DNA of 64,000 nt from Amphiscolops sp. MND2022 (taxonomy: Eukaryota): NCBI GenBank assembly GCA_964187785.1, contig OZ076409.1:28460001-28524000 (forward strand), read 5' to 3'. Under the pieces are notes generated by a model. That model had not been told where the DNA came from. It was given only the letters and a program-made list of their open reading frames with translations, and ran no database searches. The position numbers and the translations under genes were made by a program. This document shows, one piece after another, positions 10,371 to 40,242 of this stretch. Positions within the stretch are counted from its first letter, which is position 1. Each line of letters starts with the position of its first letter.

Positions 10371-13355
10371 TGCACAGAGCAAGCAAGACTAATAAATTCT
10401 ATAGTTTCTTCTTTTACAAAATTCAAAAAATTGCTTACCATAAGGGAATTGATCGATGATTCTTGTAACAAGGTGAATAAAGTTATGCCAAAAGAAACGC
10501 CGCACAGCAACAAAACTAAAACGAAATTGCAGCGACCTTCGAGAACCATTTCTCCTTCTCCACAACCATACATTAAAGTTTCCCGTGAAGAGAATGTGCA
10601 GTGTGGCTATGTCAGGGAGGATTATTTTATTTAGTCATGCCAAAGCAGATAATTGCATCAACGGGATTCAAGTTTTTGTTTATCACGTTGTGGATACCAC
10701 TTTCCACTTCTAGTACAGTTTTCTTAGTTCACATCTTTTTTCCAATGCATATATCTCCGCTGAATGCATCCGATCAAATCCAGCTCTCAGTGTTACTATC
10801 TACGTTCCGTGGTACAATGACACACAAACATCTTGAACGCCTTGGCAAGATCTTGAACACTCTCTCATTTTCTGTTAGCACCAAAAGCTACATTTTCGTC
10901 TCGAGAAGTTTCAATTACATAGCATTACAAAGCTTATCAATTCAGAACGTGATACTTGTTTAGTAGCGTTTACAGCTGCCGCACGATAAATAGACACGCA
11001 TCGGATGCGGTGCAGCAAACCATTAAATCAACGTGTCAACAATTCTACAGCTGGGTTCTAGAGTCCCAAACAGAAAGCGTTGCACGCAGAGAATTGAATT
11101 ATATGTGCATCGGCACAAATTCACGGACATTTCTGTCAATTTCAATACGCATTACACGCGAAAAAAGCAGATTCCACGCTAAATATCTAACTCTTGAAAA
11201 ACACGGAATTTCGCGCACGAAAAACTAAATTTTCCCGCAATAAAGTAAAGGAACAGCAACTTTCATGAAGAATTTAAAATCGACCTTGTTGTATCATCAC
11301 GTAGCAATACATTGAAATACGAGAAGCTTCCCTAGTCGAGATTGCTTGAACTTTTTACATGCTGCATGGAAACTTGTAAGCTAATTCTTTGCAAAACATG
11401 GAAAATTCAGGGAACATGCATGATACAATTTTGTAAAACTTCCAAGCAGTTTGTAAAATGCTTAAGTCGCATCCATGCACTTTGAAAAAACTTCCAAGCA
11501 GTTTACAGGAATTTCTTTTGAAAAATAGGAAGCAAGAAAACGAAAGCTTCGATGGATGTTAAACCTGGACGACTTTACAAAACTCATTCAAACGCTTTCT
11601 GTTCATCTTGAAAGCTTGTGTATTCATCAAAAGGTCAATTTAATGTAATTTCAATCATAACAAAAAGTGACAAATAAGCACAAAAAAGATAGTTGAGAAG
11701 CCAAACCGAGTTCGTAGCCCTCAGAAGCAAAAGTTACAATTGGTTAAGTCAATTCAATCTTTTACCATGTGACATGCATTTGATGACCGAATCACAAATA
11801 CATACGTATATAAAAAAACTAGAAAGACTCTACATTGTTGACAATTATCAACTTTTAAAACTTTTTTCTAAGTATCTCCGCGTTCCACGCATCAATGTCT
11901 GGTAAAAGTATGCCTTTTAGTTGATTCTCCGGGGGAGAACTCGAAGAGCTACTAAGCTCATTTCTCATCCTATTGGATATTATATATATAGTGATTCATT
12001 ATTTGATATGTTTTGCTTTTAATATCCAATGAAATTATACTTTCAAACTTTCAAACTTTCAAAGAAGTTAGCAAAACCAAACCAGCGTCCAGTTCGCAAA
12101 CGACTGAAACAAAAGCTAGAGCTTTGGCCACGTCTGAAGCACTCCAACTACAAACATGACGAGACCAGAAAACTAACACGGTTGGAGAGGCTGAAACAAA
12201 AGCGTTTCTAAAACATTCGAAACTTTGATACACAGCGAGACAAAAAGCAAGGTTTTCAAACAATTCAAAGCATCGGTTCAGGATGGGATATCAAACTAGT
12301 CCTCGACGTTTTTGCTCATTATTACAATCAAAAGGTTGAAGAAAGGTTTCCGATAACAACAAAAACAAGGTTGAATGTTCCAAAATCTGTATGAAAAGTT
12401 CTCAGAAAGTTCTCCTGAAAACAGCTTCGACAACCCATAGAAAAACGCAAAACAATGGAAGGCATTCCCAAAAAGCTCTTGAGAAACGTCTAAAAGTGTT
12501 TCGGGAATAACGCCTAAAAGAATAACATCTAAAATTCAACGTTTTAAAATAGGGAAGCAGCATAACTGGAAGACAGAATAAGATATAACGCCTAAGATCG
12601 AAATTACCAAAATGGATTAAGATCTAATGGATTACATGTCAGGAGTCGGAAACATTCCTTTGGAGCTAGATTAAGGTCACATCGTCTTGAATGTCTTCAA
12701 CATTCTCTAATACAACCGAGTCGACAATCCCAACAAACACTAACGCGAACTATTAGCCAGATTACATCAGGGGTGTCTCTGCATCGATGGCATCGAAGCC
12801 TAATCTTGACACAACTTGATTGTTTTCTGTTTAAATATGGCCTTCGAACACATTCTTGGAAATTTTCTTTTCATTCAAAAATCTTGACCTTTGTTATTGC
12901 AGTCCTGGTAAAAAGACTTTGTGTATTTTTAGAAGTTCAGGTTTTAGATCTTAGGCGCTGGTTGAACTCCGGAAAAAAAATCTTAGGCGACGTTCTTAGT
13001 TCTTAGTTCTTAAAAAGATCTGAGTTCATTTTGGATCATGTTACACCTTTAGATCTTATCCCATGTGAGGCGTTAGATGATCTTAATCCGTCCTCCCGAG
13101 CGTAACTTACTCCAGACGTTATTCCCGCCTTACATTTCAACGTAGTTTGATTTTTTTTCTAAAATTCAAATTTTTCAAACAAAATCGATGATTTTCATCT
13201 TCTAAATGTTCAAAAAGGCGATGATTCGCATGAAGTTTGAATCGAAATGCTCACAAAAGCCTGTTATAGCACTTATTCTACTATATCAGATTTCGTTACT
13301 GGCTGAAATTTCGTGGCTGAAAAAAAATTATAGAAAAATTGAGTTTTCAACCAAT

Positions 13356-13768
13356 TGTGATGCCATGATGCATGTCCTCAAAGATTCCATAAATCTGAAA
13401 TACTCTGAACTCTTAACCAAAGTGATTAGTAAATGTAATTTAATTTGGAAGCTAATTATTCTAGAAGAAACTTCATCTAATATATCCTGTATCAAGCTTC
13501 CCCGATTCATCCTGTTGCTGTCACATTGTTAATTGATGAAACCTACCCTAGTTAATAGAATATATCTACTCGGAGAAATTGAGAATTCATCCTGACGATC
13601 GGTCTTCCCGTCAGCACTCCAAGAACTGAGATCTCAGAAATAGATTGTAATCAGACTTAGCTAACTACAAGATACAAAATAAGACGACTCTGCTGTTAAA
13701 ATCTTAGACTTCTTATGTCGATGATAAAACATCTAAAAGTAACTACCACACAACTTTTTAACAGCTCA
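13356..13768 (+). repeat. 5' LTR of element A
   Basis: TGTGATGCC...ACAGCTCA; direct repeat of 30743-31155 with about 10 substitutions counted by eye. Confidence 0.95.
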
Positions 13769-13770
13769 AT

Positions 13771-13785
13771 TGGTGCGACCAAGAA
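13771..13785 (+). promoter_or_regulatory. Primer-binding site of element A
   Basis: TGGTGCGACCAAG begins 2 nt after the LTR CA; cognate tRNA not assigned. Confidence 0.7.
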
Positions 13786-14466
13786 AATTCTTCTTTCTCT
13801 CCCATTCATTTCACACATCTACAATTGTTGTACACCTTTCCACGACTTTCTCATTCGATATCTCTTTGTTCGACACACAGTTTCTCCGCCTCTCTCTCAA
13901 TATCGCTTACCGTTACTAACTTCAACGTTGCAACCAATTTCTATTTGAAATTGATCCGTGTTGCTATGGTTCTCACTGCGTTTCTCAACGTAATTCCTGT
14001 CAGTCATATTTCTTGGTTCTGACTACGTTTCTCGCCATAATTCCTGTCAGTAAATTTTTCGTTCCAACCACCTTTGAGTGAATTCGTGTTGGCTTTCTCT
14101 CTTTCTTCCGTTCCAACCGCAGACGTGCGATACGTGTTGGCCCTTCTACAGTGCTATCCAGCGATTCCTGCTAGTAAAAATCTCTTTGGTTCGAGCCGCT
14201 CGGATCAACTTTAAAGTTGGCACACCTATATAACATCCATTTTTCATAACATCTTTATAATACTTTTCCTTCTCTCTCTTCTAATAGCACAAACAAAATA
14301 CAAAACTCTTTTAAAACTAAACTACGGATCCAAATACACAACAATTAAAAATATAACATATATATCACATATTTCTTTATATAACTTTCATTTTTTCATA
14401 CACATATATATATAACAAATTTTTATACAACCTCTTTGGCACACTCTTAATAGAACTTTATTGTAC

Positions 14467-14589
14467 ATGCCGCCTTCAATAGACACTGTAGTTACACTCA
14501 TTGTTTGCTTTTGGTTCTTTATTGCTATCGTTGCCGGTCTTGCACTTTTTCTTGAGAAATTCTTAATTTCATTTATACCAAAACTTTGA
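14467..14589 (+). CDS. 40-aa hydrophobic upstream ORF (single transmembrane helix predicted)
   Basis: MPPSIDTVVTLIVCFWFFIAIVAGLALFLEKFLISFIPKL*, translated by hand. Confidence 0.4.
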   Translation: MPPSIDTVVTLIVCFWFFIAIVAGLALFLEKFLISFIPKL

Positions 14590-14856
14590 AGTACAACCCT
14601 TCTCTTCTATTTTAACAAAGATAATACTACCTCTTTTTGGACTACTTAGTATTTACCACACTTTCTATACACTTATCCAATATATACAAAATCCATTTTT
14701 TCTTTTCATAAGTACAGTACTTACAATTTTCTTACAAGTTGTATTCATAGACCAAATTTTACCATATAATTCACAATTCAATACAAGTTATCTTCTTTTT
14801 CAATAGATATATCCTTTATGGCAATCTTATTATACTAACCAAACTTAAACCTTATA

Positions 14857-17800
14857 ATGCTTCCCACTCCATCTATATTAACCACTGAAAAAGACAAAAT
14901 CGATCTCTCATACAAGATGTAACACCTTTTCTAAATAACATTATCTTCCAGTACACAAATCCGCTACCATTTGAAACTGAACCCCATATAGTACATACTA
15001 TCCCATTAGTAAGAGAACATTGTGATTCCTATCTCTATTACATTCGATATAAAACACTTGAAATAACACCATCACAAATCCCTTTTCAAGTTATTTTTAA
15101 CCCAGTTAAAGGAATAAACTCTGGAACATTTTATAGAACCATACACCCACAAAATTTTACAAACAAAACATTTTCAATACAGTTTCTTTATCAACATTAT
15201 CCTTACGGATGATACTATACCCCAAGTAAAAATTTTTACCCAATTCTTATTAAAGTTTTTTAGATTGAATTATCAACTACTTTGGGAACAAAAAGGTCAA
15301 CAAGCTTACATTAATTTCCCTCAAATACTAACATATATAGAACTCTTACCATACATCATAAAAAATGAAAACAAACATTTACACTACAGAGATCTTACTT
15401 CATTTAATATTATACATTTTCAACAAATAAACTTAGATCACAACGTTTTACTTGAACATTCTGAAACATCAGATAACAGACCTTTTATTACATCCGACAC
15501 TTCTCACGAAATAACTCCTGCAGAACAAACTTCTAGTGTTGAACCTTCATATACAAGACAACAATCAGAACAATCAGAACAAGAATCCCCAGAACAAGAC
15601 GCCCTTGTTAATCTTTTTCAAAATCCTAATCCTTCTCAAGAACAACCACTATACCCACCACTATCACAAATCTCAGATATACAACAACCAAACCCTATAC
15701 AAAACAACTACAACTCACAACACATCAGAATTCTCTGAAGAAACAGTACAAAATACACGAAGTTTTACAATAACTGACGATTCAAATCTTATAATAATTC
15801 CTACCCACAATATCACACAAAACGAATTTACCAACCAAAACCAAGACAACACTTCAAATACAAATCCAGACAATACCTCTATTTTATCCACATCTAACAC
15901 TAATATTACACAACCTTCTCAGGCACAAATACCATCCCCTCGAAATTATAATCCACCTTCTGTTCCAACTCAATTTTCAACTCAGATAAACACCTATGAT
16001 TCTCCTCAACCAAGTTCATCAAATACACACTATATTGCACAGAACACTAATACAGTACATTTTCAAACACCAACTCCACCATTACCTTCTGAAATACAAA
16101 CTTCAACTTATACTCCAGCTCAAACTAACCCAGTACAAACTACACAACCTTCCTTAAATGTTAACACCATTTATTCCAACCCATCCACTAATTATACCAC
16201 TGCCAGACACCTTTCTCGACCTCCATTACAGCCTATATTAACTAATCCATTATCGTACAGTCTTACAAGTACTAATCCAAGTAATACACAACAACCTCAG
16301 ATAAACTACAATACACCCAATCCATTAAATACTCTTTCCTCTCAACACACATCTAATACAATCACACCTACATTACAACCTTCCCAATTTCAAATACCAC
16401 ATCCTCCTACAACAACAATTAGAACTAATCCTCACTTTCATAACACTTCTACCACTTCCTTAACTAATATTTCAAATAATTCTACTTACAATACAACACC
16501 ACCATCTACCATATCTCATAACACCATGTCACACCCAACATATATTAACTCCTCTACTTCTATATCAGAGCCCATTAAACCTTTTAATGGCCTTGATCAT
16601 AAGTATACATCTGAAGAATACTTACAACATATTGAGGCCCGTGTTACATTTTCCTTAGGTTTACAACCTACATCAGAACAGGAAAATAAATTTTGGCACG
16701 CTCGCCGCATGGCTTTCATACAATGTTCTTTAATAGGTACAGCACTCAGCTGGTACATTCGTTTAAACGACACTTATAAACATGATTGGCACGCTATTGT
16801 ACAAGCCTTCAAAAAACAATTTTCCTCACAAAAGAACGCTTACTATGCTCAAGTTGAAGCCCTTAATTTAACCAAAAAAGAGAATGAAACAGTACGTCAT
16901 TTTGCACTCAAATTTCAACAGCTGGTTGAAAAAGGCTGGTGTAATGAGAATGCATCCACTATAAACCTTAAATGTAATGAAATCTTTACAAAAGGACTTC
17001 CAAAAAATCTTAAAGACTTTGCAAATAAAAGGCAAGTAAAACACACTTCCACTGTTCTAGAACCTTCAATTCCTTTTCATACATTAGTAAAACTTGTTGA
17101 CGCTGAAGATATTGCAAACGACAAAATCAGAACACATGATCTTGCACTTGAAATTAATAATATTACAAAACAATTGAGTACTCAAACTCTTGATCACTCA
17201 TCTCAAGAACAACTTATGTATACACAACCCAAAGACCCAAACAACAAAAATAAACCTGCATATAAGAAATATTGCTAATACTGTCATAGAACAAATCACT
17301 CCATTTCTGCATGTTTCAAAAAACAACGAGATGATGAAGATAAACGAGAAGCATATGCTCGATCTAAATCTCCACAAAAATCATTTGTACAGTACTTTTC
17401 TTCTCCTTCCAATGATAGAACAAAAAACTATGATAATAGATACAGAAGTCGAAGTACTTCACGAGACAACTCTTACAACAAAAATTATCCACAAAACCGA
17501 TACCGTTCTACATCTCGAGATAGAGATAGATTTCGTTACGACAAAAGTACTACTCCTCCACACTACTCTAGATCAAGATATGATTCATACAAACGTGATT
17601 CCCGGTCTTACCGTTCTCCTTACAGATCTTCTTATAGATCCCCATATCGACAAAACTCTCGTCCTAGATACAGATCACGCTCCTATTCAATAGACAACAA
17701 ATTCACCAAATACACAAATTCATATAGACCACCTTCAAGACCAAGAGACTCTAGATTTTCTAGATCTCGCTCACACTCCAATTCCAGAAATAAAATCAAT

Positions 17801-20800
17801 ATGATACAACAACAAGACCAAACTGACCCTATAAAACTTGAAGTACACATGTACCACCCAACAGCAATGGCAAATGCTGTCACACCTACAAGTTGGTTTT
17901 ATACACTATATGTACATACACCATCAAGTATAGTACAAAGAGACAACCCATCTAGATTAGAAATTGCATTCCTCCTAGATAGCGGTGCTTCCATTTCTGT
18001 ACTCAATTACCCAACATACATAACTCTTACAAAACTCCTAGATATCAGATCAAATCACACCTCTGATGTTGGACCAACTCGAAATTTCAAAACATTAACC
18101 GTTGCAAACCAAACTGAAGTTCCTATTTTACATTATGCAAATATAATTTTGAACACCACTATTGACGAAAACTCTCGTTACTTTTCAGTACTTTTCGCAG
18201 TAGCTGATATCAAATACAACATCCTTGGCACACCATTCTTGGAAGACAATATACAAAACATAAACATACAAGACTTTACACTCGAATTTAAATACCAATC
18301 AAAAACACACCCAAATTATGCAAAGTTCACAATACTCCTATCCAAATATCATCCATACTTCTCTTACATTTATAGAATTAATTCAAAAACTCAAATACGT
18401 CCTAAACCCAAGTCTTCAAAAATTGCACACTTTCCAATAAAAAATTATCATAATCTCCAATTTACAACTACACCACAAAACCACTTCTTTCCTTCAGTAC
18501 CTCATACCTATTTCGCTACTAAATTTCGTACAAATTTCAATTTTATTGAAGTATTTACTGATGACAAACCAGATATTTGTGCAACTATTATTCAGAACAC
18601 TTCAAAACATGTTGCAACACTACCTACAGGACATATTGGATATATTGAAGTTCCAATAACTAATGAAAAACCCAAATTCTTCCAAGTTAATGACATCAAT
18701 ACCTTAATACATAACGTTACTTACACCTGCCATCCTGAAATCACTGAGCCACTTCCACAAACCAACTATATTGTACAATATGATGACCCTACGACACCTC
18801 CTCCTCAATTCTCTTTACATCAAATTTTTATGACCAACGACGACATTCCAAATCAAACTTCTCCTTTATATAATGTCCAACCTACTTCTCATACTTCAGA
18901 AAAACGCATTTTCCCTTCTCTACCATATACATCTGAAAATCTGAAATTCATTAATCAATTTAACTTCCAATTTTCTGACCTTACAGACACTGAATATATT
19001 ACTCTTTGCAGTATGTTACTCAAGTATAAAACTTGTTATGCAACTCATAAAAACGATGTTGGAAAAATTTCAACACCCTTCCGTATTCGACTTAAACCAA
19101 ATGCTCAACTTATGACACAACGTCCTTCAAAAGTCCCTATTCACTACAGAGACAAACTTAACGTACTTCTTAAAGAACTTGAAAGATATAACATTATCAA
19201 ACAAATTGGTTCCTCTCCTCAAGACAAACTCGTTTATGGTAGAACTTATTTAAATCCTCTCATTATAATCCCTAAGGGAGATACAATAAAAAGTGTATTA
19301 GACGCTCGACACATTAACTCCAATACAGAACAATCTGATGAATCTTGGCCTATTGAACCTCTTGCTCCACAACTAGCACGCGCAAATAAGAAATACAAAT
19401 CTGCTATTGACCTTATGTATGCCTATGCACATACACCTCTTGATGGAGACACTATAAAACTTACTAGTTTCTCCTCCGGAGATAAACTCTTCGCTTTCAT
19501 TCGAGGTTTTTATGGTCTCAAAGGACTCCCAAACTTCTTTACAAAACAAATGTCCACCTTCTTTAAAACTCTTATAGAACAAGGTTTTGCTCTTGTTTAC
19601 ATTGACGATATGTTACTTTTATCTGACTCTAAAGAACACATGTTCCAATTTATAGAACAACTACACATTATTAGTACAAAAAACAACCTTAAACTAGCCC
19701 CTGAAAAATCATTTTTCATGCTTCTTAAAGTCAAATTTCTTGGACATGAAATTGGTTACAATACAATTAAACCAATCCATTCGAAAATTGCAGCTATCCA
19801 TAAAATCCCTTCTCCAACTGGCAAAGTTGCCCTAATGAGTTTCATTGGCGCACTCAATTTCTACACCAAATTTATTGAAAAACTACATATTAACCTCAAA
19901 CCATTTTACAATCTTTTACATGAAAACACTCCTTGGAAATGGACAGATGAACACGAAAGTCTTTTCCAGAAACTTAAAATGTCTCTCACTTCTGAAACAG
20001 AACTTACAATACCAAATACAAAACATCCATATTTCATTACAGTTGACGCTTCCCTTATCGGATTAGGCGCTGTCTTATTCCAATTAAATGAACAAAACAA
20101 AATGAAAGTTATATCATACAACTCTCGTATACTTAATCCACAAAAACAAAAACTCTCCACACTTGATAGAGAACTTCTTGGTATAGTACACGCACTTCAA
20201 ATCTATGAATTTCTTATCATTGGTTCTCCTCATCCAATACACATTTTCACTGATCACAAACCTTTATTACATTGTTTTACAAAAAAAGGTAATCTTAGTC
20301 CTCGTTTTTATAGAGCTCAAATGCAGTTAACAAAATTTTCTAAACTCAAAATAATTCACACTCCTGGAAAAAATCTCTCTGTTGCTGATATGTTAAGTCG
20401 CTCTTTTACAAAAGCTGAATTACAACTCAACCAATTAAAACATAAACAACTTCCACCACAAATTGATTTTGCACTTCTACAAAATAACACTCTTAAACCT
20501 GTACATTATTTAATTAAACACGAAGAAATTTTACCCCATCAAAAACATGACTCTCACCCAATCCTCGCTGATTATGGTACAGATCAATTCTCTAATCGTA
20601 TCAATGACAAAGGAAATGACATTGTTGTCAAACCGTTACAATCTTTCTCATTCAAATCTATAACTCCTTTTCAAACCAAGTTCAAGACACCTATAAAAAA
20701 GAACAGTAAAAACTCTTCATCAACAATCTCTCTTATTTAACGATACTGACGTTACAAGCGATGACGAAGATCATATATATACTAGAATTCCAAAATCTGA

Positions 20801-22859
20801 CTCTTCCTTCCTTCAAGACACTACATTACAAACAGAAAACTATTCTACTCCTAAACAATTAACTCCAAATACTACAAAAAAATTTGTTTCTACAATAAAT
20901 GTACAACCAAATTTACCATCTCTCACACACTGTCAACAAATTATACCTTTCTATGATACATCATTTTTCAAGTACAAAAACTATTTTCAAGGTTTCTTCC
21001 TCCCAGATGATTACTCGTTAGACATAAAAACTCTTCAACAACAACAAGCCCAAGATCTGGTTCTTAGAACTGTTTATTCTTGGTTATTAAACAATGAAAA
21101 ACCCGAATTTGTAACACCTATTATCACTGGTACTCCATTTTAACATGTATATTACAAAAGATTTTCACAACTTTTCATTGACGAGTCCACAAACCTTATT
21201 AGTCTATATATTACAAACCCTAATGTTATAAACCAATACTCTACTCCAAGTTTTGTACAAGACACTATTCGTATATGTCTTCCTTTTCGAATGTTCAAAA
21301 CTGTTTTTAACAAACTCCATGAACACTCTCACACTGATATGAAAATTACATACAATACATTCAAACAATATTACTACATTCCATTCCATGAAAAATGGCT
21401 TTCCATTTTCATACATGACTGTATTGAATGTCAACGTAACAAACACTTCAATATGAAAATTCAAACTGCTCCTACACAATCATTTTCAGAACATGCTCCA
21501 TCTTTCAACTATCGAATTTCAATGGACACTAAAGGACCTATTAATCCTCCTTCTCACAACAAATCCTATATACATGTAATAATTGACGCTTTTAGTCACT
21601 TTGTTGTTACAGTACCCATCAAATCAAATAACGCAAAGACTGCTATCAAAACTCTCCTACACCATTGGATTATTAAATTTGGACCACCTATATATCTTGT
21701 CACTGATCGTGGATCAGAATATGTTAATAAAGAAATGGCACACCTTTGTACACTTATGGGAATTCGTCATTCTCCTAGAACAGCTCATTCTCCTTGGACA
21801 AATGGCCTTGTCGAAGTACAAAACAGAAATCTTGGTACCCACCTACGAATGTTCTTGCATGACACACCTAAAGCATGGGCATTCCAAGTCCATATGTACG
21901 CTCATGCACATAATTCACAACCACTTTCAGAACTCTATATTTCACTTCACGAACTTGTTTTCCACACCCGACCCAGAATACCTCTTACATTTGATTTAAA
22001 CTTTAACTGAGAAACTTCTAAAACATGTATTTCACGCTATTGCTCTCAACTTCCAGAACACTCCCATTATGACAAATCGAATTTAAACCGATTTTTCTAT
22101 AAAACACTTTCAAAACCCATCCCTCATTGGTTTCTCGCCGTAGAAACTGCTATGTTACAAATTTATTCTACAGTATACGAAAACACTCTACGAAAAATCA
22201 ATTCACACGCATACATTACAAAATTTTACCACGAAGGTAAACCCCTTCCTATTGGTACCTTTGTTTTAAAACGCAATTTTACACACGTTCATTTTTCTGA
22301 CAAACTAAAACCCCTTCGAATTGGACCATACAAAATTCTTGATAGATTATCAGATGTTACATATGAACTACTTGCACAAGATGGCTCTACAGTACTCGTC
22401 CATAGAAATCATTTAATTCCATATTATCCAAAAGAACCACTCTTATATCCACATCTACGTAGTTTTATGCGCTTTTCAGACACAACTCAATTCCAAATTC
22501 CACAACCTACCAAATACGCAAACAGTGATTCTTCCCCTTTTAACTCAGACGAATCTTTGTCAGAAGAAGATTCTCAAACATTTGTGACGCCACCATCCTT
22601 TACTACGTCCAATCAAAATACACCATCTATAACATCCAATGACAAGTCTTTCACTCCCTCAACCAATGACAACTCCTTATATAGACATATAATTAATACC
22701 CCTCACACTAATGTCTCTAGTGACAGATCAAGACACTCATCTAATAACCAAACAACTTCACTTCCTCCTCTAATTGACAGAACCACAAAAACTACTTATA
22801 AACTACGACAACAAGCCAAATTAGATTATAGACTTTTTATTACACCCTCAAAACTGTAA
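14857..22859 (+). pseudogene. gag-pol of element A, disrupted (start approximate)
   Basis: Capsid-like region (IKPFNG...ALSWY); CX2CX4HX4C knuckle broken by TAA at 17276; RS-rich tract; protease FLLDSGAS; RT YIDD; RNase H TVDAS...TDHKPL; integrase HHCC, SMDTKG/TDRGSEY/GLVE and GPY. ORFs 15536 and 17801 share a frame; frameshift near 20710; stops near 21142 and 22008. Confidence 0.93.
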
Positions 22860-22945
22860 TCCCATCATTCTATCCGTTGGCTCACTCAAAACTAGTCACT
22901 CCAGTTAAATGAAATATAACCAATAACAAGTTATCGCAAAGATAA

Positions 22946-24205
22946 CCTGTTGAAAACACTTCAACAATCCTGGATCCTCCCTCTGATATATCTCCATCAG
23001 CTCCAAGTATTCCTTCCACACCTGAATCTTCAGTATCAAGCACTACAAACTCTAGTAATGTAACTCCTACTACTCCTTATAAAAGACCAAGATCACACAT
23101 TTCTGAAACCACCTCTTCTTCACTTCTTCATAGACCACCTATAACTGAAATCCCTATAAACACTCGTACTCAACAAACTCCTATTAACACTCCTATTATA
23201 CACATACCAAACCCTGAAAGTGTTGAACAATACGTAACCTACAAACATCCTACAGCTATCAAAACTGTTAGACTACAACCTCAACTTAATCTTGTACAAA
23301 TCCCTGATACGGAATATACAAAGTTACCTTCACTGAAATTACCATCAGAACTTAGCACTACTTCTTCAAAACTTTATCCACCATTAAAACCTCTTCGAAA
23401 ACCTTCTACATCACTCTCAAATCTCTTAGACAATACTTCAGACTACGCTCCATCACAAGACACAAGCTCACTTTTAGTACCTAAACATAGATATAATCTC
23501 CGTGACCTCCCTTCACGTAGACTTAGTACAGACACTTCAACACTCAATTTTTCCACTCTTTCTAGCAATTCTGCACTACGACTTATACGACAACACGCTC
23601 AACCATTGTCCTCTGACACACCTTCTTCAGAACTTTTCCAATCTCCTTATTTTACTTCTGGCTTTGAAACTGCTTCATTACTCTCATCTAACCCTCAGAC
23701 TGCATTTTTATCGGGAGACCTTTTTTCACAAGTAGTCTTCCCTACTCCTGTTCCTGCACATATTAGACTACCCGAATACTATACTGCAGAACACTCTAGA
23801 CCCCCAACTCCAAATTTTGCTGACTATCCACTTAGAGTCGATGGTATAACCATCTACGACCCACAAAACGACCCCCGATTTCCAATTCTTGCAGAACGTT
23901 TCATTAACAACAACGACCTCTTATCTCACAAACGCAAAGAAACAGAACTGAAACGCCTTCAGACACCAAATCTAGAACTTAAATTTGAAGTCAAAGTCAA
24001 ATTTCAAGGATTAAATCCACACCCAATATTTCACGTTTCTACAATAGAACATAAAACCTCTCCTGCTCCTTTTGAAGTAATACATATTGAATTTGAACGC
24101 GATCTTAATATACCCACTATCACGTATGGCAACATTGTCTTCTGTAACCCATATTCCGGTCTTAAATATACAACATCTTTTCAAACCCTACACAACCTTT
24201 TATAA
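22946..24205 (+). CDS. Accessory ORF between pol and env (~420 open codons, S/T/P-rich N-terminal half, PSAP and LYPPL motifs); start unresolved
   Basis: The frame of ORF 23606-24205 stays open back to 22946 (hand-translated). Confidence 0.6.
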   Translation, partial: PVENTSTILDPPSDISPSAPSIPSTPESSVSSTTNSSNVTPTTPYKRPRSHISETTSSSLLHRPPITEIPINTRTQQTPINTPIIHIPNPESVEQYVTYKHPTAIKTVRLQPQLNLVQIPDTEYTKLPSLKLPSELSTTSSKLYPPLKPLRKPSTSLSNLLDNTSDYAPSQDTSSLLVPKHRYNLRDLPSRRLSTDTSTLNFSTLSSNSALRLIRQHAQPLSSDTPSSELFQSPYFTSGFETASLLSSNPQTAFLSGDLFSQVVFPTPVPAHIRLPEYYTAEHSRPPTPNFADYPLRVDGITIYDPQNDPRFPILAERFINNNDLLSHKRKETELKRLQTPNLELKFEVKVKFQGLNPHPIFHVSTIEHKTSPAPFEVIHIEFERDLNIPTITYGNIVFCNPYSGLKYTTSFQTLHNLL

Positions 24206-26833
24206 AACAAATTTAATACTTTATTTACACTTATTTAACTCCACCTTTTCCATACTCATAACACCCTCTGACACAGAAAACTATCTTCCATCGGATTACC
24301 CAAATATTACAAATCTCATGGTTTCTCATTATGACTGTGCAAAACAACACAATTTGAGACAATTTAACTTACTTAATGTAAAATAATGCACTGAAGCTCC
24401 TTCTGACATTAAACACGCAAGTGTTAAAGCCCGTGTATATGTCCGAGCAAAAGCTAAACGCATCAAAGCTTTTAAATGTGTTGCTTATGCAAAGAAAGAA
24501 AGAAAAAACTTGCTTTCAAGGTTCCGTAAAATACCGTCGTGTTGATAGAACGGTATGGAACCATAATACAATACCGCTCCCTGTTACTCTTGATCCTTTA
24601 GAATGTAAAAACATTATAAGACATTTAAATGGTACAAATGATAAAATATTGAACAACTTTCAATACAACAAAACTTTTACACTCTTAGAACATCATTATT
24701 TTCAAGAACGTTAAGAACAATATCAAACTCCTTTCACTGTATATCAATTGAACAAAATGTATACAGGTACATTTACATTTATGCCTGCTGATAAAAACTG
24801 GATATATGACCCTACTCAAAACCCTTATCATAACTGTCCTGCCCATCACCAATTCGAAGTCAACCTGGTTAGTTAGCGATTAGAAATTTCCGAAGTAGAA
24901 CTTACATATGATGACACATCTAATGACATGATAATCGATGGACATACATTACCCTGCTATTTTGCAGATGGTTTTTGAAAACCCACATCAAAAACTCCTT
25001 TTACTTTTGTTTGGTTCAATGATGATTATTGCTTAATTTTTACATTACAAGATTTCATTGGCCGTATGACTAAAATTGAAGATAGATATTAGATTGGAAC
25101 AGACTCTTTTGTACATTCTCCACACCCAATAAAATCTAAAACAGCTTCTGGTATCAAAGGTACAGAATACTCCTATGTTTATGCTCCTCATACACAACAT
25201 CCAAATAACCCAAGTCTTTCAAGATTTGAAGTTTTTCCTACAGCACAAACCTTTTGTGGTAAACCAGACCCTCTCTATTCTACACAATATTCAGACCTTT
25301 TTGTTACATACACTGATGGTTTCAATATGCATACAGGACAACCCAATCCTTATTCCATGATTGATGAATATATTTCCGGTAAATTAGTATTAGACACTGC
25401 AAATAACAAATTTGTATTCCCTGCATTAAATGTCTCAAACAATTTTGCTACTATTGACTATGACGCCCATATAAACACCAAAATAGACTACACTATCAAC
25501 CATGTTTTTAGATCAATGACAGTACAAGAACTAAATACTCTTCATACAATATGTGAACTAGAACGCAATCAACTCCTTACAATACTCGCAATGTCAGAAC
25601 AAAACCCTCAACTTGCTGGTTTCCTTTTAACCGGTAATAGAAGTAATTTCTTATACGTTGAAGGCTCAACCGCCTGGCTTTACGACTGTCCTCATTTTTT
25701 ATCTCCTTTATACAAAGCAGATAGATGCTTTGACCGAATACCCATACATTTTAAAGATACCTTAATGTACGTTGATCCTATTACAAGACAAACTTATGAT
25801 TATGCTACACCAATTACATGTGATAATAATCCACGTAACTTATTGAACTAGATCCTGATTCAGACGACCAAGACTTTTACATTCTTGGACCTGAACCTAT
25901 TAAACGCAAACCTCCACTAATGTTTACACCTTCACAAATCAAAACTACACTACGCCCTAATACCTTTACAGCCCAAGATGCTGGTATATATTCAAATGCA
26001 GAACTTGATCAATTTTGGAACCGTATTTTATTTCTAAACATTCTGATTCTACACTCCAATTACTAGGCAAAGCTCTTAGTTATTCCTTCATTTCATCTAA
26101 TGCTCCAAATTACGATGCAGATTCCCCTCAAGATTCTGGTAATCCTTATAATACATTACGTATAGGACTCCACGATAAACTCTTGAATTTAACTCCTTTT
26201 TTTACACCTACATGGTTTTCAGATGCTTTTATTGCACTTTTTGGATACCCTTGTTACATTCTCACACAATGTGGTATATACTTTTCTACATTTCTTTTCG
26301 TACAAGCTACTCTTACACTCATTGTCAAACTTAACAAAACAATATCCATTAAATATAATCTCAAAAATAATATTACCTTATTTAGTTCTATAGCACATGG
26401 TTTTTTTAATGTCCTTACAGCACGAATGGTCAGTGACCTCCATGAGACTCAAAACAAAAAACCCAAAAGTACACTTTTAAAATCCAAATCCTTAGATAAT
26501 TTTATTGACACTTCTCCAAATTTAATTAATCATTCTACAGATGTTACTTCCCCTCCACCTTTCTATACTAAACGTCCTAACAAAATTCAATTTCCTAAAT
26601 TTAACTTGTTTCCGAAACGACACCACAGTTCCCACCAAAAAACAGCTCCGTTTCCTTTCACTCCTGTTCAACATCCTCCACTTCCTAATTATACTCATAA
26701 AAACTTTCACTCGAAGGACAATCTCACTACTCAACATGACACTTTAATTAACAATTCTGAAACCTCCAATACGGATACACCAATTAAAATATATTCACGG
26801 ATAAACTATCCTTTTCCTCCTCCATCTTCTTGA
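24200..26833 (+). pseudogene. env: env: class III (chuvirus G / herpesvirus gB-like) fusion glycoprotein, disrupted
   Basis: Signal-like KTNLILYLHLFNSTFS; motifs SHYDC, LDPLEC, ICELERNQLLTILAM..NPQLAG and CFDRIPI..YVDPITR..PITC; TM segment near 26230-26330; Pro-rich tail; several stops and frameshifts. Confidence 0.8.
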
Positions 26834-27104
26834 ACACTCTCTCACTTTTCTGTAAACTTTCTTCCAGCACACTTGCCTACTATCTCTTCACAATTGCTAC
26901 TCCTCCACCGCACGAAACTCTTGCAGAAGTTCATCTTCCTCAGCCCAAAAATACATCTCTAATAATAACCGTCTTCAAAAACTCTTCAACTAAAGTTGAT
27001 AAATCCACTCGTTAGTGTATTTTTTAGTACCTTCACTTCAAAGTGATAAGGCCTCTTGGAATAGATAACACTGTGATTGTTGATGTTTTTCTTTTAAAAA
27101 TACA

Positions 27105-28418
27105 ATGACACAAGCACAAATTGATCTACAAACCCAGCTTGAACAAGCAACCCCAACAGATCTTATAACTAGACCTCTTTCAAATGATTCTCCTGTTCTC
27201 TATATTGAGACTTCTGAACAAACACCTCCAACTTTTCTTGAACAAATGGAATATACAAAAGTTGAACACGAAAATTCAAAACCTACTCCTCCACAAGATG
27301 ATACTGATCATACACAACCAACACCACCTCCTTCAAAAAAACGATATGAGATTATGAAAGATCCAATCTTTCTTTCGTCACCGATATATCCTCCTTCAAT
27401 ACCTTCAAAAATTTCACTTTGCACGAATCGCGATGACCATTTGATCCCACTTCTTTCTACTGACGATTTCGCCTTTAAAGCACAACTAACTTCACTATAT
27501 ATGCATCCTACCGATTATTCATTTCGACTATATGACAAAAATCAAGACTTCTTCACGTCCATTGCCTCCAAAATAATGGGTCCATACCAATATTGGCTCG
27601 ATAATGGAGTTAAAATTTTCTCTCTAAAATTTAATTTTCTTCGACCGTCTATCTACGATCTCAAAACAGATGAATCTGATCCATCTTTTCTCTCTATAGC
27701 ACAAAAAGCTACTCATCATCAAACGTATACTAAATTTCTACAATACACGAAACCACAAAATCACATTTTTGTCAATTACAAATATACATCACCGTTCACA
27801 ATGACAAATATGTACACTCTGGACCACTCTTGTATAACAGGCTACCTTCGAAATTATGACCCTATAAAACAATACTTCTGTTTGCTTCCATATAACAATA
27901 CTTCACGCCCACTTATTGTACCTCAAGAATATCTCATACATTACGACGATTTTCTGTTGCCTTGCAACATTCCTACTCAAATTGCCAAACCTCTCACTGT
28001 TATTAAACACCTAGTATCTTCTCCACTTGACGATAATGATAGAACGTACTATACAGCACTCTATAAGCAAACGTATTCCTACAATGAACTTCTCTTTATA
28101 TCTGCCAAAACTATCTCTTTCATGGTACAAGCTGAACAAAAAACTGAACATAAATCACACGCTTCACCTATAAAAAACGCTCCTGACAAGCTTTCCTCTG
28201 TACTGAATAATCGAACACTTCGCGACATGACAAATTTACTTGAACCCTATAAACGAAACTCTTCTGACACACCTATCACAACACTCACACATATACTACA
28301 CTGCTACGACAGAACACACAAACTCCTTCAGACACTCGATTTAGACTCTCAACGCATCACTCAATCATCCCAAGCAATTCAATCTGCTTTGGAAACTATA
28401 ACTACTCTTTTTAACTAA
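27105..28418 (+). CDS. Accessory ORF of element A, 437 aa, unknown function
   Basis: Intact ATG ORF between env and the 3' LTR, with the same composition bias as gag-pol. Confidence 0.75.
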   Translation: MTQAQIDLQTQLEQATPTDLITRPLSNDSPVLYIETSEQTPPTFLEQMEYTKVEHENSKPTPPQDDTDHTQPTPPPSKKRYEIMKDPIFLSSPIYPPSIPSKISLCTNRDDHLIPLLSTDDFAFKAQLTSLYMHPTDYSFRLYDKNQDFFTSIASKIMGPYQYWLDNGVKIFSLKFNFLRPSIYDLKTDESDPSFLSIAQKATHHQTYTKFLQYTKPQNHIFVNYKYTSPFTMTNMYTLDHSCITGYLRNYDPIKQYFCLLPYNNTSRPLIVPQEYLIHYDDFLLPCNIPTQIAKPLTVIKHLVSSPLDDNDRTYYTALYKQTYSYNELLFISAKTISFMVQAEQKTEHKSHASPIKNAPDKLSSVLNNRTLRDMTNLLEPYKRNSSDTPITTLTHILHCYDRTHKLLQTLDLDSQRITQSSQAIQSALETITTLFN

Positions 28419-28852
28419 ACTAATCTTCATTAAACTCTTCTACAGGTAATACAAATTTCTTAATTTTTCTTCTCTGGTACATTCTATGATACATCTGTGG
28501 CACATTATAAAAGGTATTTTAATTTTTACCTACTTATTTAAAGTAAAATCTTGCTTTTGAATGAAATCTTAGGACTATTTTTCAAGTACAACAATCTTTC
28601 CTACAGTACATGTCAAAAAGCTAAATACTTCTATCAAAAAAACCTCCAATACAAGACATACAAAAACATATAGCACAACACTACATATGATACATTCTAG
28701 CACCCAATTTTGTTGTACATCCTTGACTTGATATTGTCAGTCTTCTTACACTTCCTTTGTTTTAGAAACATCCATTCTTCTTCCTCCTCCTTCCATACTC
28801 TTTCAGAACATCTCCACTTCTCCTCTTTCGTCTTCTACAGGATTCTCTCGCC

Positions 28853-29305
28853 ATGGCCCCCAACGCTGAAGTAGAAGATATAAGAACTATGACTTCAGGT
28901 CACTCAAAAGTTCATAGCCTCAAAGCAGCTATTTTTCACACAATGGCTCACAAACTTTCACTGGAAATCAACAACAATAAAATAACGCCAAAATCTCTTA
29001 TAGCCTTTCTGAAAATCTTATATAATGTCGCCCAAATCAAAAAGAAACGCATCACATTTGAACAATATTCAAGGATTCATGTTGCCGGACCAAAAATTGC
29101 CATTTGTGAAACGGCTTCTAATGTCGTTTTTGTGTTAAACTCGGCATTCACTTCCAAAGACCAGTATTTTCAAGCTGCCCTACAAGAAGCCACAAACGCA
29201 TTCAATGAAATGCTCCACAGTTTTGCGTATACACAGAAATTAGAACACTATGACCCTCATCAACATCAGGCCCATCCACCTCAACAACATCCTCTATACA
29301 ACTAA
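28853..29305 (+). CDS. Accessory ORF of element A, 150 aa, unknown function
   Basis: Strong Kozak context GCCATGG, 12 nt downstream of a pyrimidine-tract/CAG acceptor-like site ending at 28840. Confidence 0.6.
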   Translation: MAPNAEVEDIRTMTSGHSKVHSLKAAIFHTMAHKLSLEINNNKITPKSLIAFLKILYNVAQIKKKRITFEQYSRIHVAGPKIAICETASNVVFVLNSAFTSKDQYFQAALQEATNAFNEMLHSFAYTQKLEHYDPHQHQAHPPQQHPLYN

Positions 29306-29514
29306 AAGAATATTCTACTTACTTTTATCACTCTTCAACTCCATCTCTTCTTGAATCCATCATTCTTCCTCAATGATGTTTGAGATGTAGCTGTCGATCA
29401 CTCCTCTAAAGAACTTCTCCTACACATGCTGACATCCTTCACTCCACCCACACATGATGGTCAACAACATCCATCCACACTTTGGGTTCATCGACGTTGC
29501 CAACCTTTGTCCTC

Positions 29515-29632
29515 GTCACTGGTCTTCTCAACCTGCTTCTTCACTGGTCTTCACACTTCAACGTTCATCGACTTCTTGACTGGTCTTCACACTTCTATGT
29601 CCGCTGACTTCTTGACTGGTCTTCACACTCCA
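29515..29632. repeat. 3-4 copies of a ~36-bp repeat (core actggtcttcacact) in the 3' region of A
   Basis: Direct observation. Confidence 0.8.
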
Positions 29633-30742
29633 ATGGACTATACTCCAAATTTCAAACATTGTAATCCAAACTTGAGTCACTTTTCAAACTGAACTATACA
29701 CTCAATTTTAACAAATATAACTTGAAACTTTTTGTAACCTATTTTAATCAAATTATAACTTTAATACAGTATAGTGCTATGTACTCTTATCTAATCTTTA
29801 GTGCTCTATACTCTTATCAAATCTTAATCTTCTATAATCGTATTATAATTACCCCTCTGTTGCAAAATCCCTCCAAAATTCTACCGATAATTATCTTTGA
29901 AACCACAATATTATCTGCTTCCATTGTCTTGTGTATAGTACATTGACATAATCTTATCTAATTATTTTGTTACATCTATAATACACTTCAAAAATATATC
30001 TCTAATACCCATCTTTTACAGAACACCAGTCATACCTACAGCACACGAAATTTTCTAAGATTTTTGGACCAAAATTTTCTTTTACAAAACATGTTCTACA
30101 CCTTTGTTTTAATCCCCAAAATCATTCCCAAAAATTTTCACAATTTTCTTTTTGAACTCTTCAAAAATGTAACTTCTCGTTTTCTAATGTTTGAAACTTG
30201 AAATTGCCAAAGTTTTTTTTCAACTGTTGCTTCTGCTCCACTCTTCACTTTCGTTGAAAATGAACTCTCACTCGAACCTTGACTTTTCGAAACTTCTTCA
30301 CTTTTGGTTCACATACCCGCCATTGTTGATTCACAACTCATTGACAACTTCACGCTTTAATTCTTCAACTTGAAAAGTTTTCAATGCTGACTAACTCATG
30401 TTGATGAAAAAATTTTTTCAAACAAGCCGATGGCCGATACGAAGAGAAACATGAAACAATAAATAGTTGTCAACAATAACTTCATAAAAAACTGTCAGTC
30501 AAAGAAACTGAAAGAACTTGAACCTTGCTTGAACCTTTTTGCACCAATTGAATCGTCTATGACGTAAGAAGTCAAATCGTCTTAGGTTGTTCTCACTCCT
30601 TAGGTATAGTACTCTACAAAACGAAACTCATGCAATTCCAGTACAACACATATGAAACAAACCCATGCATATAACAAAAACTTTAGAACTCCTCAAACCC
30701 AAAGTGCATATATGTAATTTTAATTTTAAATTCCCGGTTGAT

Positions 30743-31155
30743 TGTGATGCCATGATGCATGTCCTCAAAGATTCCATATATCTGAAATACTCTGAACTTT
30801 TAACCAAAGTAATTAGTAAATGTAATTTAATTTGGAAGCTAATTATTCTAGAAGAAACTTCATCTAATATATCCTGTATCAAGCTTTCCCGATTCATCCT
30901 GTTGCTGTCACATTGTTAATTGATGAAACCTACCCTAGTTAATAGAATATATCTACTCGGAGAAATTGAGAATTCATCCTGACGATCGGTCTTTCCGTTA
31001 GTACTCCAAGAACTGAGATCTCAGAAATATATTGTAATCAGACTTAGCTAGCTACAAGATACAAAATAAGACGACTCTGCTGTTAAAATCTTAGACTTCT
31101 TATGTCGATGATAAAACATCTAAAAGAAACTACCACACAACTTTTTAACAGCTCA
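30743..31155 (+). repeat. 3' LTR of element A
   Basis: Matches the 5' LTR; followed by TSD CAAT. Confidence 0.95.
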
Positions 31156-35651: not shown

Positions 35652-38600
35652 TTACTGGGTGGCGGAGGAGTGACGCGCTCTGGGGGAAACGTCTGCCTTT
35701 GGTTGCAGTTCGGACAGAGATCCTCTTCGCGTATTTCCTCCTCGCAGGACTGGCTTTGGTTCGGCGCTGGCAGTTTCATGGGTCCTAGGAGCCGTGTTTG
35801 AGCCACTAGGGCCATTTTCTGCGGCTACAGGAGTTGAGGCTTCTGGCGAATGTTCTTGCGCTGCATTGGCTGAGCCGCTAACATTGACAGAACTTGTGGT
35901 CGACGTGGAGATTGGGATCTGCACATCCAATCTACTAGCATTAAACAAGTGCGGTAGATCCAGCGGTCTATTGCGGGTGGCAATGGGTCGTTTCTGTTTC
36001 GCACTGAGTTTCGGGCGTAGATCAGGTCGGCCCCAGAGCCCGCAGGCTCTGGACCAGTTGTCCCTGTTTGCATGTTCTATGATTTGCCTGGAGGCTTCCC
36101 ATTCGGGTCCGAGGGGATCACTTAGCAATTCCATGACGTGGTAGCAAGTCTCCGCTGGCATGTCGCTTCCCATAGTAACCCTCGCCTCTGGATTCCAAAC
36201 AGGCATTGTCAGTGGGGGGATGATCAAACCTTTTAGGCGTCCTTGGCGCTCCTCCAGGGTCCTTGACATCCACACGCCAAGTTTGTAGTGGTCGCGATAG
36301 GCATACTGCTCATCAAAGCCCTTCTCGACCATACTGATTGGCTTGGCCCGGATATAACCGATGGGTCCTCGCCAGTACCTGGCTGGAAGCTTAATCATTT
36401 GGAAATTGTACTCCTGATTCGTGTGACCGCCCATGGTTTGCACACATTCGGTCACGTACTTCCTGAGGTGTGCGAAACTCCAATTGAATCGCTGTGGGAT
36501 TCCGAGGTGGTCTAGGGGAGAATTATACCAATTCACCGGGCCGTATTCGCGAGGTAAAGGGCACGCCTTCTTTGTTCGGGCTTTGAGAATACCGGCCAGG
36601 TTTTCGTCTTGCTGCGTCTCATTCTTTATTGTGGTATACATGCGTGGTACTAGCAGAAACAGCCCACGTTCAAGCATCTGTTGATAGTTGTGTGGTTTCA
36701 CGTTCTTCAGATAAGTTAGGATGGATACCGTTAACGTCTCCGAGGCCAGTCTCAGAGGCTTGGTGGGATATCGGAGTATCCCGGTTGGGCCAAATATCGG
36801 AGTTAGCACGGGTGCTAACACCGGTATAAGATCTTCGACTTCAGCCAAAGTGAAATCTGCCAGCTGGTTGGGTGTCAAAAATCCAGCTACCTCGGTCACT
36901 AGCTGACGTCCATCATATAATGGTTGGTGCTTATCCACCCCCACGAAAAGTCCCGAGGCAAAGACCAGACTGCAATATATCCAGTGATATAATGAAGTTG
37001 TCATACGCTCCAGGTGAGCGGGATAATCCTGAGCGTCTTTCCGTTGCAACAGCTTGGCTAGGGCGGTGAGGCCTGAGATATTCCCTCGTGCAATCACCAG
37101 ATATGAAAATAGCCATTCCAGATTACACTCGGTAACCAGGTCAGTCAATATCATCATTGGGCCAGCTACAAAGCGTTTCTGCCCGAAAGTGAGCATCAGT
37201 GCAAAGAGTTCGTCCACCTGCACGGTACCGATAATCTCGCTGATTTCGATCAACCAACTCTCCTCTAAATCGAACTCGACTCGAATAACATCGGGACTCC
37301 AACCCAATCCTAAACAGATGGCAAACTGGTCGGTTGACATCCCAAGCTCTTTTGCAATGTCTGCTACGGTGGTAGTTTGTAGCCGCTGGTACCAAGCGTC
37401 GTAGGTGCTGCTGAAGGCTTGGATTTCAGCCTGAGTTTCGCTCGTCAGTTTTGCAGCAATGTACTTCATTCCCACTGATAATTGATCGATTGTGAGGTCT
37501 TTGGCAAATTGAACTCGCGGGATGGCTCGTTCTACTTCTCGGTCGCTGGGGACTTTGCTCATTGTGGCAGTGACTTCTGCTAGATCGGTTTTGATACAAG
37601 TCTTTCCACCGGAGGAGCGCGCGCGCTCTATCCAGTTATTCAGGCGGATTGCCTCGCATTCAGCCGTACTGGGCTCTGGGACTCGCCTTTCTCCGTCCTT
37701 GTTGAATACCAACAAGCCCATGCGAGTGCCGTGATCAAAGTAGATGGCATCGTCGATTGTCAGCTGCGCGTTCCCTGTCTTTTCCACTGACTGTAGCACT
37801 TTAGACACTGAGGCAATATACCCCATGTAGGACAGCCAGGAGGGACGAAAGTCATTGGAGCTAATCCGCATATTGGGCGCGCAGATCGCAAAGTCTATTT
37901 CTCTACACTTGCAAACTTCTGTCACCATGTATACAAATCTCTGCAAGGCGGGGGGCCATTGGCAAAAACCTGGGGGTGTCACGAACAGGGCTGGCACCTT
38001 GAGTTTGTCCTTCAAGATGTTTTGGGCTTTCTCCATGGCTCGGGCCATGTTCAATGCTGCATTGCGTACCGTTGTTCGCTGAGCTGGACTTGGATTCATA
38101 ATCTCAACGTTCGCGATCTGGGCCATTAGTCCTTCACAGGCCATGTGATCGAAAACGTTGCTGATGATCACTCTACGTGGAGGTGGCTCTTTGAAGGTTC
38201 CTGTCATCTCAGGGTCAAACATGGTGACCAACACTTCGGCCATCTCGGGAATACGTGACAGCGGTAGAGTAAAAACCATCACGTCTGACAACACGTTGTC
38301 AATGGGGACATTCTTGAGGAATGTTGAGTCAATAAGTAAGGCGAAGCGCGCACGCTGCAACCTTTCTTTTGGCATTGGTAGCTGGGCTTCGAGATCACGG
38401 GCGTACCGTGGGTTGATCTCAAAGGTCTCTCCAGCGTTGAGGAAATATCGATCGGCGAATTGACCACGAAGGTCAATGTTGAGGGCGTCTAGGTAATTGT
38501 CTTCTACGTTTGGCAGCATATTCATTGCCTTCCCTAGCCATGGCGGCTCATTGGTAGGGGTGTGGTCGGGGCGGATTGGACGATTCATGAATACAGGTAC

Positions 38601-40019: not shown

Positions 40020-40242
40020 GCCGACAATTCTGAAAGAGCGTAGGTCGATTGTAGCACACTTGATAGTAGGGCAACACCATAGGTCATTTTAAGGGTAATA
40101 CCAGGGAAAGTAATAGAATGTCACGCATTAACATTAAAGAAAAAGGTAATGTAATAGTCTCAAATAAACTCCGTGTCGACTCACTAAACTTAATCGAGCG
40201 GATAAAAAACAAAAAACAAAAAAAAGCGGAAAAACGAGAGCT

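Follow-up and report, generated by a model that had tools for sequence, protein, structure and literature searches.

The locus considered here raises the question of which class of envelope protein is encoded by a broken gene in the genome of Amphiscolops sp. MND2022, what kind of element carries this gene, and how such an element might express it. All positions refer to the window, which is the whole stretch of 64,000 nt that was analysed (GCA_964187785.1, contig OZ076409.1, 28,460,001 to 28,524,000, forward strand). A preliminary description had read the gene as a class III fusogen, rather than a baculovirus F-type protein, that was captured by a Gypsy lineage. Taken as a whole, the locus is probably best explained as a broken copy of a Ty3/Gypsy element whose env has a predicted class III fold and is reached by leaky scanning from a CUG start, with the product of the intervening gene, ORF X, perhaps acting as a budding adaptor.

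Structure of the carrier element

The carrier of env was found to be a Ty3/Gypsy LTR element of 17.8 kb between its LTR ends, the copy in the window being broken. Its features are as follows.

13356..13768, plus strand: 5' LTR (TG...CA), preceded by the 4-bp target-site duplication CAAT; 97.6 % identical to the 3' LTR
13771..13781, plus strand: primer-binding site, an 11-nt match complementary to the 3' end of host tRNA-Val(TAC)
14870..22859 (start approximate), plus strand: gag-pol, broken here, identified by motif, Pfam and structure matches
22970..24205, plus strand: ORF X, Met-free and P/S/T-rich, about 410 codons, with a putative CUG start at 22970
24126..26833, plus strand: env, pseudogenized in this copy by five stops and three frameshifts; gene for a predicted class III (gB/chuvirus G-type) fusion glycoprotein
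27105..28418, plus strand: ORF4, a soluble protein without known family, 435–495 aa
28853..29305, plus strand: ORF5, about 150 aa counted from the first Met
30743..31155, plus strand: 3' LTR, directly followed by CAAT

The order gag-pol, ORF X, env, ORF4, ORF5 was common to all three families of this element that the genome contains, and gag-pol is a single continuous frame in unbroken relatives. It comprises Gag, a CCHC-type knuckle, the protease motif LLDSGAS, RT, RNase H and an integrase with a GPY and SH3-like end. Pol follows the Gypsy order RT–RNase H–integrase, as indicated by the Pfam profiles RVT_1, RT_RNaseH, Integrase_H2C2 and rve, while of the C-terminal profiles Integrase_p58_C scored above its cut-off and SH3_Tf2-1 just below. 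The best match of the RT among solved structures (PDB) was Ty3 (E 6.7e-36), and the Pfam matches of Gag-Pol included no BEL-type Gag/Pol profile, as would be carried by a BEL/Pao element. Assignment of the carrier to Ty3/Gypsy (Metaviridae) is supported by these sequence data. The tRNA-Val(TAC) gene was located by pattern and by ARAGORN, and its match to the primer-binding site extends to 13 nt in the sister subfamily 1B. Identity with Troyka was rejected, as the element has TG..CA termini and a 4-bp duplication, whereas Troyka is marked by CG..CG termini and a 3-bp TSD (PMC12440569).

Several further observations concern the composition and surroundings of the element. Its plus strand is strongly G-poor, with a GC skew of -0.2 to -0.54 (window 13400-31000) and flanks close to zero. 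The tract preceding the 3' LTR (30725-30742) is not purine-rich (CCCGGTTGA; family 2 version, CCCGGTCGGA), and in family 1 a word resembling this tract reappears directly after the pol stop. Over the Arg/Ser-rich region of gag (17178-17693), many copies have an open ORF of about 200 aa in an alternative frame, which is probably a by-product of composition. Elsewhere, the window holds a second, GC-richer Gypsy-like element (35652-50121, minus strand) with an unbroken gag-pol frame of 3292 aa followed by an extra ORF of 1478 aa; three long frames of 622, 177 and 402 aa (55666-59821, plus strand) that seem to derive from a single gene and contain a C-x2-C..H..H motif; short frames resembling decayed Gypsy pol fragments (3899-7229, minus strand); and tandem arrays at 9309-10415 and 411-1252, with units of about 178 bp and about 33 bp, respectively.

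Families, copy number and age

Family 1, to which the element in the window belongs, has at least 624 copies in the genome, as counted with an exact 21-nt pattern, and all 150 env matches scored were at least 94 % identical. Twenty family 1 copies were sampled, 10 of them top-listed and 10 chosen for an unbroken env; the env was unbroken in three of the 10 copies taken from the top of the env match list. LTR pairs were 98.3–100 % identical (17 of the 20 copies measured), which indicates recent multiplication. The same genome carries two further families, and between the three the RT is 72–78 % and the env ectodomain 56–66 % identical, with the same rank order for both; trees of env and of RT (seven local rows each) gave no clear order for these families. 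As young copies number in the hundreds and belong to three divergent families, expression signals can be read from conservation. The LTRs of family 2 (L068, L071, L074, L077 and L080) terminate in TA instead of CA, with 4-bp duplications, and at L030:8494-10000 (element orientation) a 3' LTR continues into another leader, so that tandem elements have a common LTR.

The envelope gene and its predicted fold

Three-frame translation recovered every motif on which the preliminary description had relied, namely YDC, the CELER-type helix, CF..IPI, YVDP.TR and a TM segment, with YDC at 24330, CELERNQLLTILAMSEQNPQLAG at 25552, CFDRIPI at 25726, YVDPITR..PITC at 25768-25821, a hydrophobic anchor at about 26231-26326 and the stop codon at 26831-26833. 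The start that it had placed at 24200 was not borne out: the first ATG is at 24126 and leads into a signal-like hydrophobic stretch at residues 27–45. The copy in the window is interrupted by in-frame stops at 24384, 24712, 24874, 24976 and 25090 and by frame changes near 24510, 25840 and 26030. In unbroken relatives, env encodes 901–902 aa with 16 Cys, a membrane anchor and a tail of about 170 aa that contains PPxY. The N-terminal hydrophobic stretch and the membrane anchor, judged from hydropathy peaks, and 16 Cys at matching spacing were seen in all three families. The dN/dS values of env for two subfamily pairs were 0.12 and 0.07 (bootstrap ranges below 0.4), and the gene is regarded as a class III-type envelope, by predicted fold, that is kept under selection.

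The class of the envelope was examined by profile and by structure. For the Pfam search, the env in the window was divided into four pieces with in-frame stops read as X, and three of these matched PF24664 (Monjiviricetes_fusion; curated cut-off, 27 bits) at profile positions 25-77, 299-429 and 439-493. The longest piece scored above the cut-off (49.2 bits, E 2.8e-13), the two short ones fell below it (E 0.017 and 0.012) and the fourth, C-terminal piece had no match. As the matches are collinear in three of the four pieces, the motif observation is not due to chance. An unbroken natural copy scored 86.2 bits (E 1.7e-24), and four relatives scored 71.6–95.6 bits.

The structural model of an unbroken natural copy (monomer, 84-row alignment) reached a pLDDT of 75.8 and a pTM of 0.58 and contains a central helix of 45 residues; the single-sequence model had a pLDDT of 33. 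The preliminary description had proposed a Foldseek comparison with herpesvirus gB and the G proteins of Jingchuvirales, and both were the top matches: all 32 matches listed from the PDB were herpesvirus gB (best, HSV gB, E 8e-13), and the best matches in BFVD were G proteins of chuviruses, xinmoviruses and their relatives (best E 2.5e-26). TM-scores were low, at 0.27–0.32 to gB and 0.41–0.43 to chuvirus G, and identity to viral G proteins in structural alignments was 13–16 %. VIA-align, which is independent of Foldseek, gave ranks 1–11 to gB, rhabdovirus G and thogotovirus Gp (best Z 8.5, rmsd 12.6, 407 residues aligned); a Z of 8.5 is middling alone, and the fold call takes its weight from the agreement of three structure searches. 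PDB sequence and profile searches with env returned no match, and no relative of protein P0140 was found among viral contigs. On the strength of the profile and the predicted fold, a class III envelope on a Gypsy element is almost certain, in agreement with the class that had been proposed for it.

Origin of the envelope

Relatives of the envelope outside this genome were found at 26–38 % identity in 10 metagenome records, five of which had ORFs listed. The longest of these, L111, is a Gypsy element in which gag-pol and env are followed by two further ORFs; it is the sole close outside relative with gag-pol among its neighbours and shares 46 % identity in RT and 28 % in env with the lineage in the window. 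In the sequence examined of the other four, RT or a viral polymerase was absent. The extra ORFs after env in L111 (1-13166), L113 and L116, which have the same env type, are 290–560 aa in length, and none of them resembles ORF4 or ORF5 at E 1e-3. Env genes of the gB type on Ty3/gypsy elements have been described across invertebrates, accounting for 221 ENV_HSV of 1,512 elements (PMC13524379, Chary and Hayashi 2026), in a set that includes glycoproteins resembling those of mosquito BEL/Pao elements and for which an ancient acquisition was argued. Short env and RT motifs from our element had no match in the supplements of that study, of which the first 400 characters per entry were covered, a result that does not show absence from the catalogue.

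Two other accounts of the envelope can be weighed against these data. One takes env for a class I protein of the baculovirus F type or for a membrane protein of non-viral origin, as might be expected of a Gypsy carrier, given that the env of Drosophila gypsy is F-type (PMC13524379). However, no F-type Pfam match was obtained at E up to 1, an R-x-K/R-R (furin) site is absent in all three families, and class III proteins take the top places in each of the three fold searches; class I proteins did not appear among the matches listed in these searches, an absence from a list that does not exclude them. This account is largely refuted, and its probability is negligible. The other is that the Gypsy family in the window took up a chuvirus G gene recently and in this lineage alone, in favour of which the best structural matches among viral proteins are G proteins of the chuvirus type and PF24664 is itself built on chuvirus-type viruses. 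Against this, identity to viral G is just 13–16 %, the env is common to three families that differ in RT and env in the same rank order, it is also present in the outside Gypsy element, and such env genes have been read as ancient (PMC13524379), which makes a recent capture very improbable. The Gypsy carrier named in the preliminary description is upheld by the Pol profiles and the Ty3-like RT, but the novelty and the capture event that it implied are not, the type being catalogued and read as ancient. As gB-type env on Gypsy elements has been described and is held to be ancient, the capture is neither new nor datable here; it took place at some time, but not demonstrably in the lineage of the window.

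Additional genes of the element

A full-length ORF X was present in 16 of the 20 copies of family 1, and 14 of the 16 lack Met; it was also full length in 7/7 of family 2 and in 3/5 of family 3, and Met is absent from all of these. Between families its identity is 35–41 %, and its dN/dS was 0.10 in both of two subfamily pairs (bootstrap ranges below 0.4); taken together, these values indicate that ORF X is very probably a real gene, as judged from its pattern of sequence change. The lack of Met alone is partly compositional, as the N-terminal 400 codons of Gag likewise hold 0–1 Met. The protein is P/S/T-rich with conserved islands and ends in a conserved C-terminal block of about 110 residues, for which all Atlas matches were under 0.9 and were not used.

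ORF4 is 39–43 % identical between families and ORF5 is not alignable between them. The dN/dS values for two subfamily pairs were 0.16 and 0.06 for ORF4 and 0.05 (within family 1) and 0.26 for ORF5, again with bootstrap ranges below 0.4, and the overall range of 0.05–0.26 for ORF X, env, ORF4 and ORF5 denotes purifying selection. Two RT-integrase rows of the same analysis that were not in frame were set aside. Neither a credible Pfam family nor a usable Atlas match was found for ORF4, and no known family for ORF5. ORF4 had 340 homologues, of which the 120 listed were long-contig entries at 35–99 %.

Probable initiation at a CUG codon

All three families carry an in-frame CTG close to the beginning of ORF X, in a strong Kozak context (A at -3, G at +4), and 31 of the 33 copies examined have it (CTG at the ILD site in 20/21 copies of family 1, 7/7 of family 2 and 4/5 of family 3). 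Of the 624 flank matches of family 1 across the genome, 623 retained this CTG, a count that is weak alone because young copies differ from each other mostly by neutral decay. CTG is rare in these ORFs (16 of 704 Leu codons, 2.3 %), and the start-site CTG is the sole in-frame CTG in three of the four ORF X sequences counted. Among the other Leu columns kept in all six sequences, CTG was kept in 0/58 and any single codon in 3/58, the CTG column having been aligned with them by a manual cut. The CTG site of family 2 is not alignable with families 1 and 3 upstream or just downstream. In family 2, mismatches and gaps become fewer at the CTG, with 76 identities and 24 gaps over the preceding 120 nt and 95 and 6 past it. 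The codon before the CTG varies (ATC/ACC/ATA), with A at -3 and G at +4 invariant.

Between this CTG and the env ATG, 0–2 ATGs were observed against 5.0–7.4 expected from codon shuffles in all six sequences (P 0.001–0.09), one family 1 test not being significant (P 0.09). The ATG-poor region had been noticed before its test. Depletion was absent from seven control stretches, among which the env-tail control of family 2 was cut out of frame and is flagged. The remaining ATGs open ORFs of 1–16 codons, and in family 1 two ATGs that lie out of frame and have a purine at -3 are retained (ORFs of 1–2 codons). A conserved non-AUG start together with an AUG-poor region is a signature of non-AUG initiation with leaky scanning (PMC3542737), and a CUG start for ORF X with leaky scanning to env is likely from the conservation seen here. 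A sub-genomic RNA would cover ORF X and env, few of the scanning ribosomes would initiate ORF X at the conserved CUG, and the majority would continue over about 1.2–1.35 kb of nearly AUG-free RNA to the env AUG, so that inefficient CUG initiation would fix a low ratio of X to env.

Possible role of ORF X

In the copy in the window, ORF X contains PSAP, LYPPL and RYNLR. Across families, (L/I)YPxL and RxYNLR are conserved in 3/3 and PSAP in 2/3, being missing in family 2, and the env tail has PPxY in 3/3. None of LYPxL, PSAP, YNLR and PPxY is conserved in Gag; the outside element L111 has LYPDL and PSAP in its env tail. Short motifs of this kind arise easily in Pro-rich sequence such as ORF X. 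As LYPxL, PSAP and PPxY are types of late domain (PMC12789967), a budding role for ORF X can be tentatively put forward, in which X would be a disordered adaptor bringing the ESCRT late-domain motifs LYPxL and PSAP to the budding site, together with PPxY on the env tail, and the predicted class III glycoprotein would be likely to let particles pass between cells.

Both the start and the role proposed for ORF X have an alternative. The env of Drosophila gypsy is made from a spliced RNA that borrows an upstream AUG, and ORF X and env could each be expressed in this manner, with the CTG kept as an RNA signal instead of a start. In family 2, the interval from the pol stop to ORF X contains pyrimidine-rich stretches that end in AG and are candidate acceptors; in family 3, the frame remains open, with conserved sequence, over about 40 codons ahead of the CTG (115/120 nt identical between subfamilies), so that ORF X there may start earlier or be spliced; and ORF4 and ORF5 require their own RNAs anyway. 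Splicing alone, however, predicts neither the loss of ATG in all three frames over 1.2–1.35 kb nor an invariant A at -3 and G at +4 beside a varying codon before the CTG, and we consider it unlikely relative to the CUG start. As to the role, ORF X could be a detached duplicate of the disordered tail of the integrase that tethers to nucleosomes rather than to the budding machinery. All three families keep RxYNLR in X, the integrase of families 1 and 2 likewise terminates in YxLR, and the nucleosome-binding peptide of foamy virus Gag is GGYNLRPR (PMC12125541). Yet the shared motif is of four residues only, X and Gag-Pol gave no alignment at E 1e-3, and LYPxL is equally conserved in X, which leaves the tether a rather doubtful reading, although the two roles are not exclusive.

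Comparison with known systems

The closest known systems are the HSV/gB-type 'ancient errantiviruses' (PMC13524379), which share with our element the LTRs, the gag-pol-env order, a Ty3/gypsy pol, a tRNA primer, many near-identical copies and a gB-like env that has a signal and an anchor and lacks a fixed furin site. Our element differs in its size of 17.8 kb, in a conserved gene between pol and env and two after env, and in its putative CUG start. Extra ORFs of this kind are not described in the main text of that study, in which 'accessory', 'splic' and 'methionine' are absent, and how these elements express env and leave or enter cells is stated there as unknown. The gap between pol and env in the window is 1.27 kb, and more in families 2 and 3, which exceeds the prefilter of 1,000 nt used there for non-insect genomes; this suggests that, if our reading is true, screens that set a limit on this gap would overlook the largest elements that carry env. 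Anakin and other BEL/Pao elements (PMC7642597; summarized in PMC13524379 and PMC12440569) have the same chuvirus-like glycoprotein type on an LTR element, whereas the carrier here is Ty3/Gypsy. The G proteins of Jingchuvirales/Monjiviricetes (PF24664) and herpesvirus gB resemble our env in predicted class III fold and in a Pfam match above cut-off, but the identity is 9–16 %, and our env is encoded by a retroelement and has a long Pro-rich tail with PPxY.

The fusogen class on Gypsy elements is already known, and what is new is the five-gene layout with the signature of a CUG start and leaky scanning, which was not found in literature searches; in the titles and abstract openings searched, no paper described a CUG start or late domains in env-carrying retrotransposons. 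It is possible, though less likely than not, that these elements represent a 'complex' invertebrate Gypsy virus of 18 kb and five genes, recently multiplying, in which a CUG-started budding adaptor and a class III env would be made from one RNA by leaky scanning and ESCRT late domains would lie outside Gag, in an accessory protein and the env tail. The late-domain proteins of retroviruses, among them HIV p6 and RSV p2b (PMC12789967), have the same PSAP, YPxL and PPxY motifs but carry them in Gag, while the candidate late domains here are divided between the env tail and an ORF of its own, ORF X. In rice tungro bacilliform virus (ORF I-III) and MLV glyco-Gag (PMC3542737), too, a non-AUG start lies upstream, and leaky scanning over roughly 1 kb that is poor in AUG leads to a major downstream ORF; this was shown experimentally in those systems and is inferred here, before env in a Metaviridae element. 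If true, our reading would extend such non-AUG/leaky-scanning strategies, and accessory-gene complexity, to the Metaviridae.
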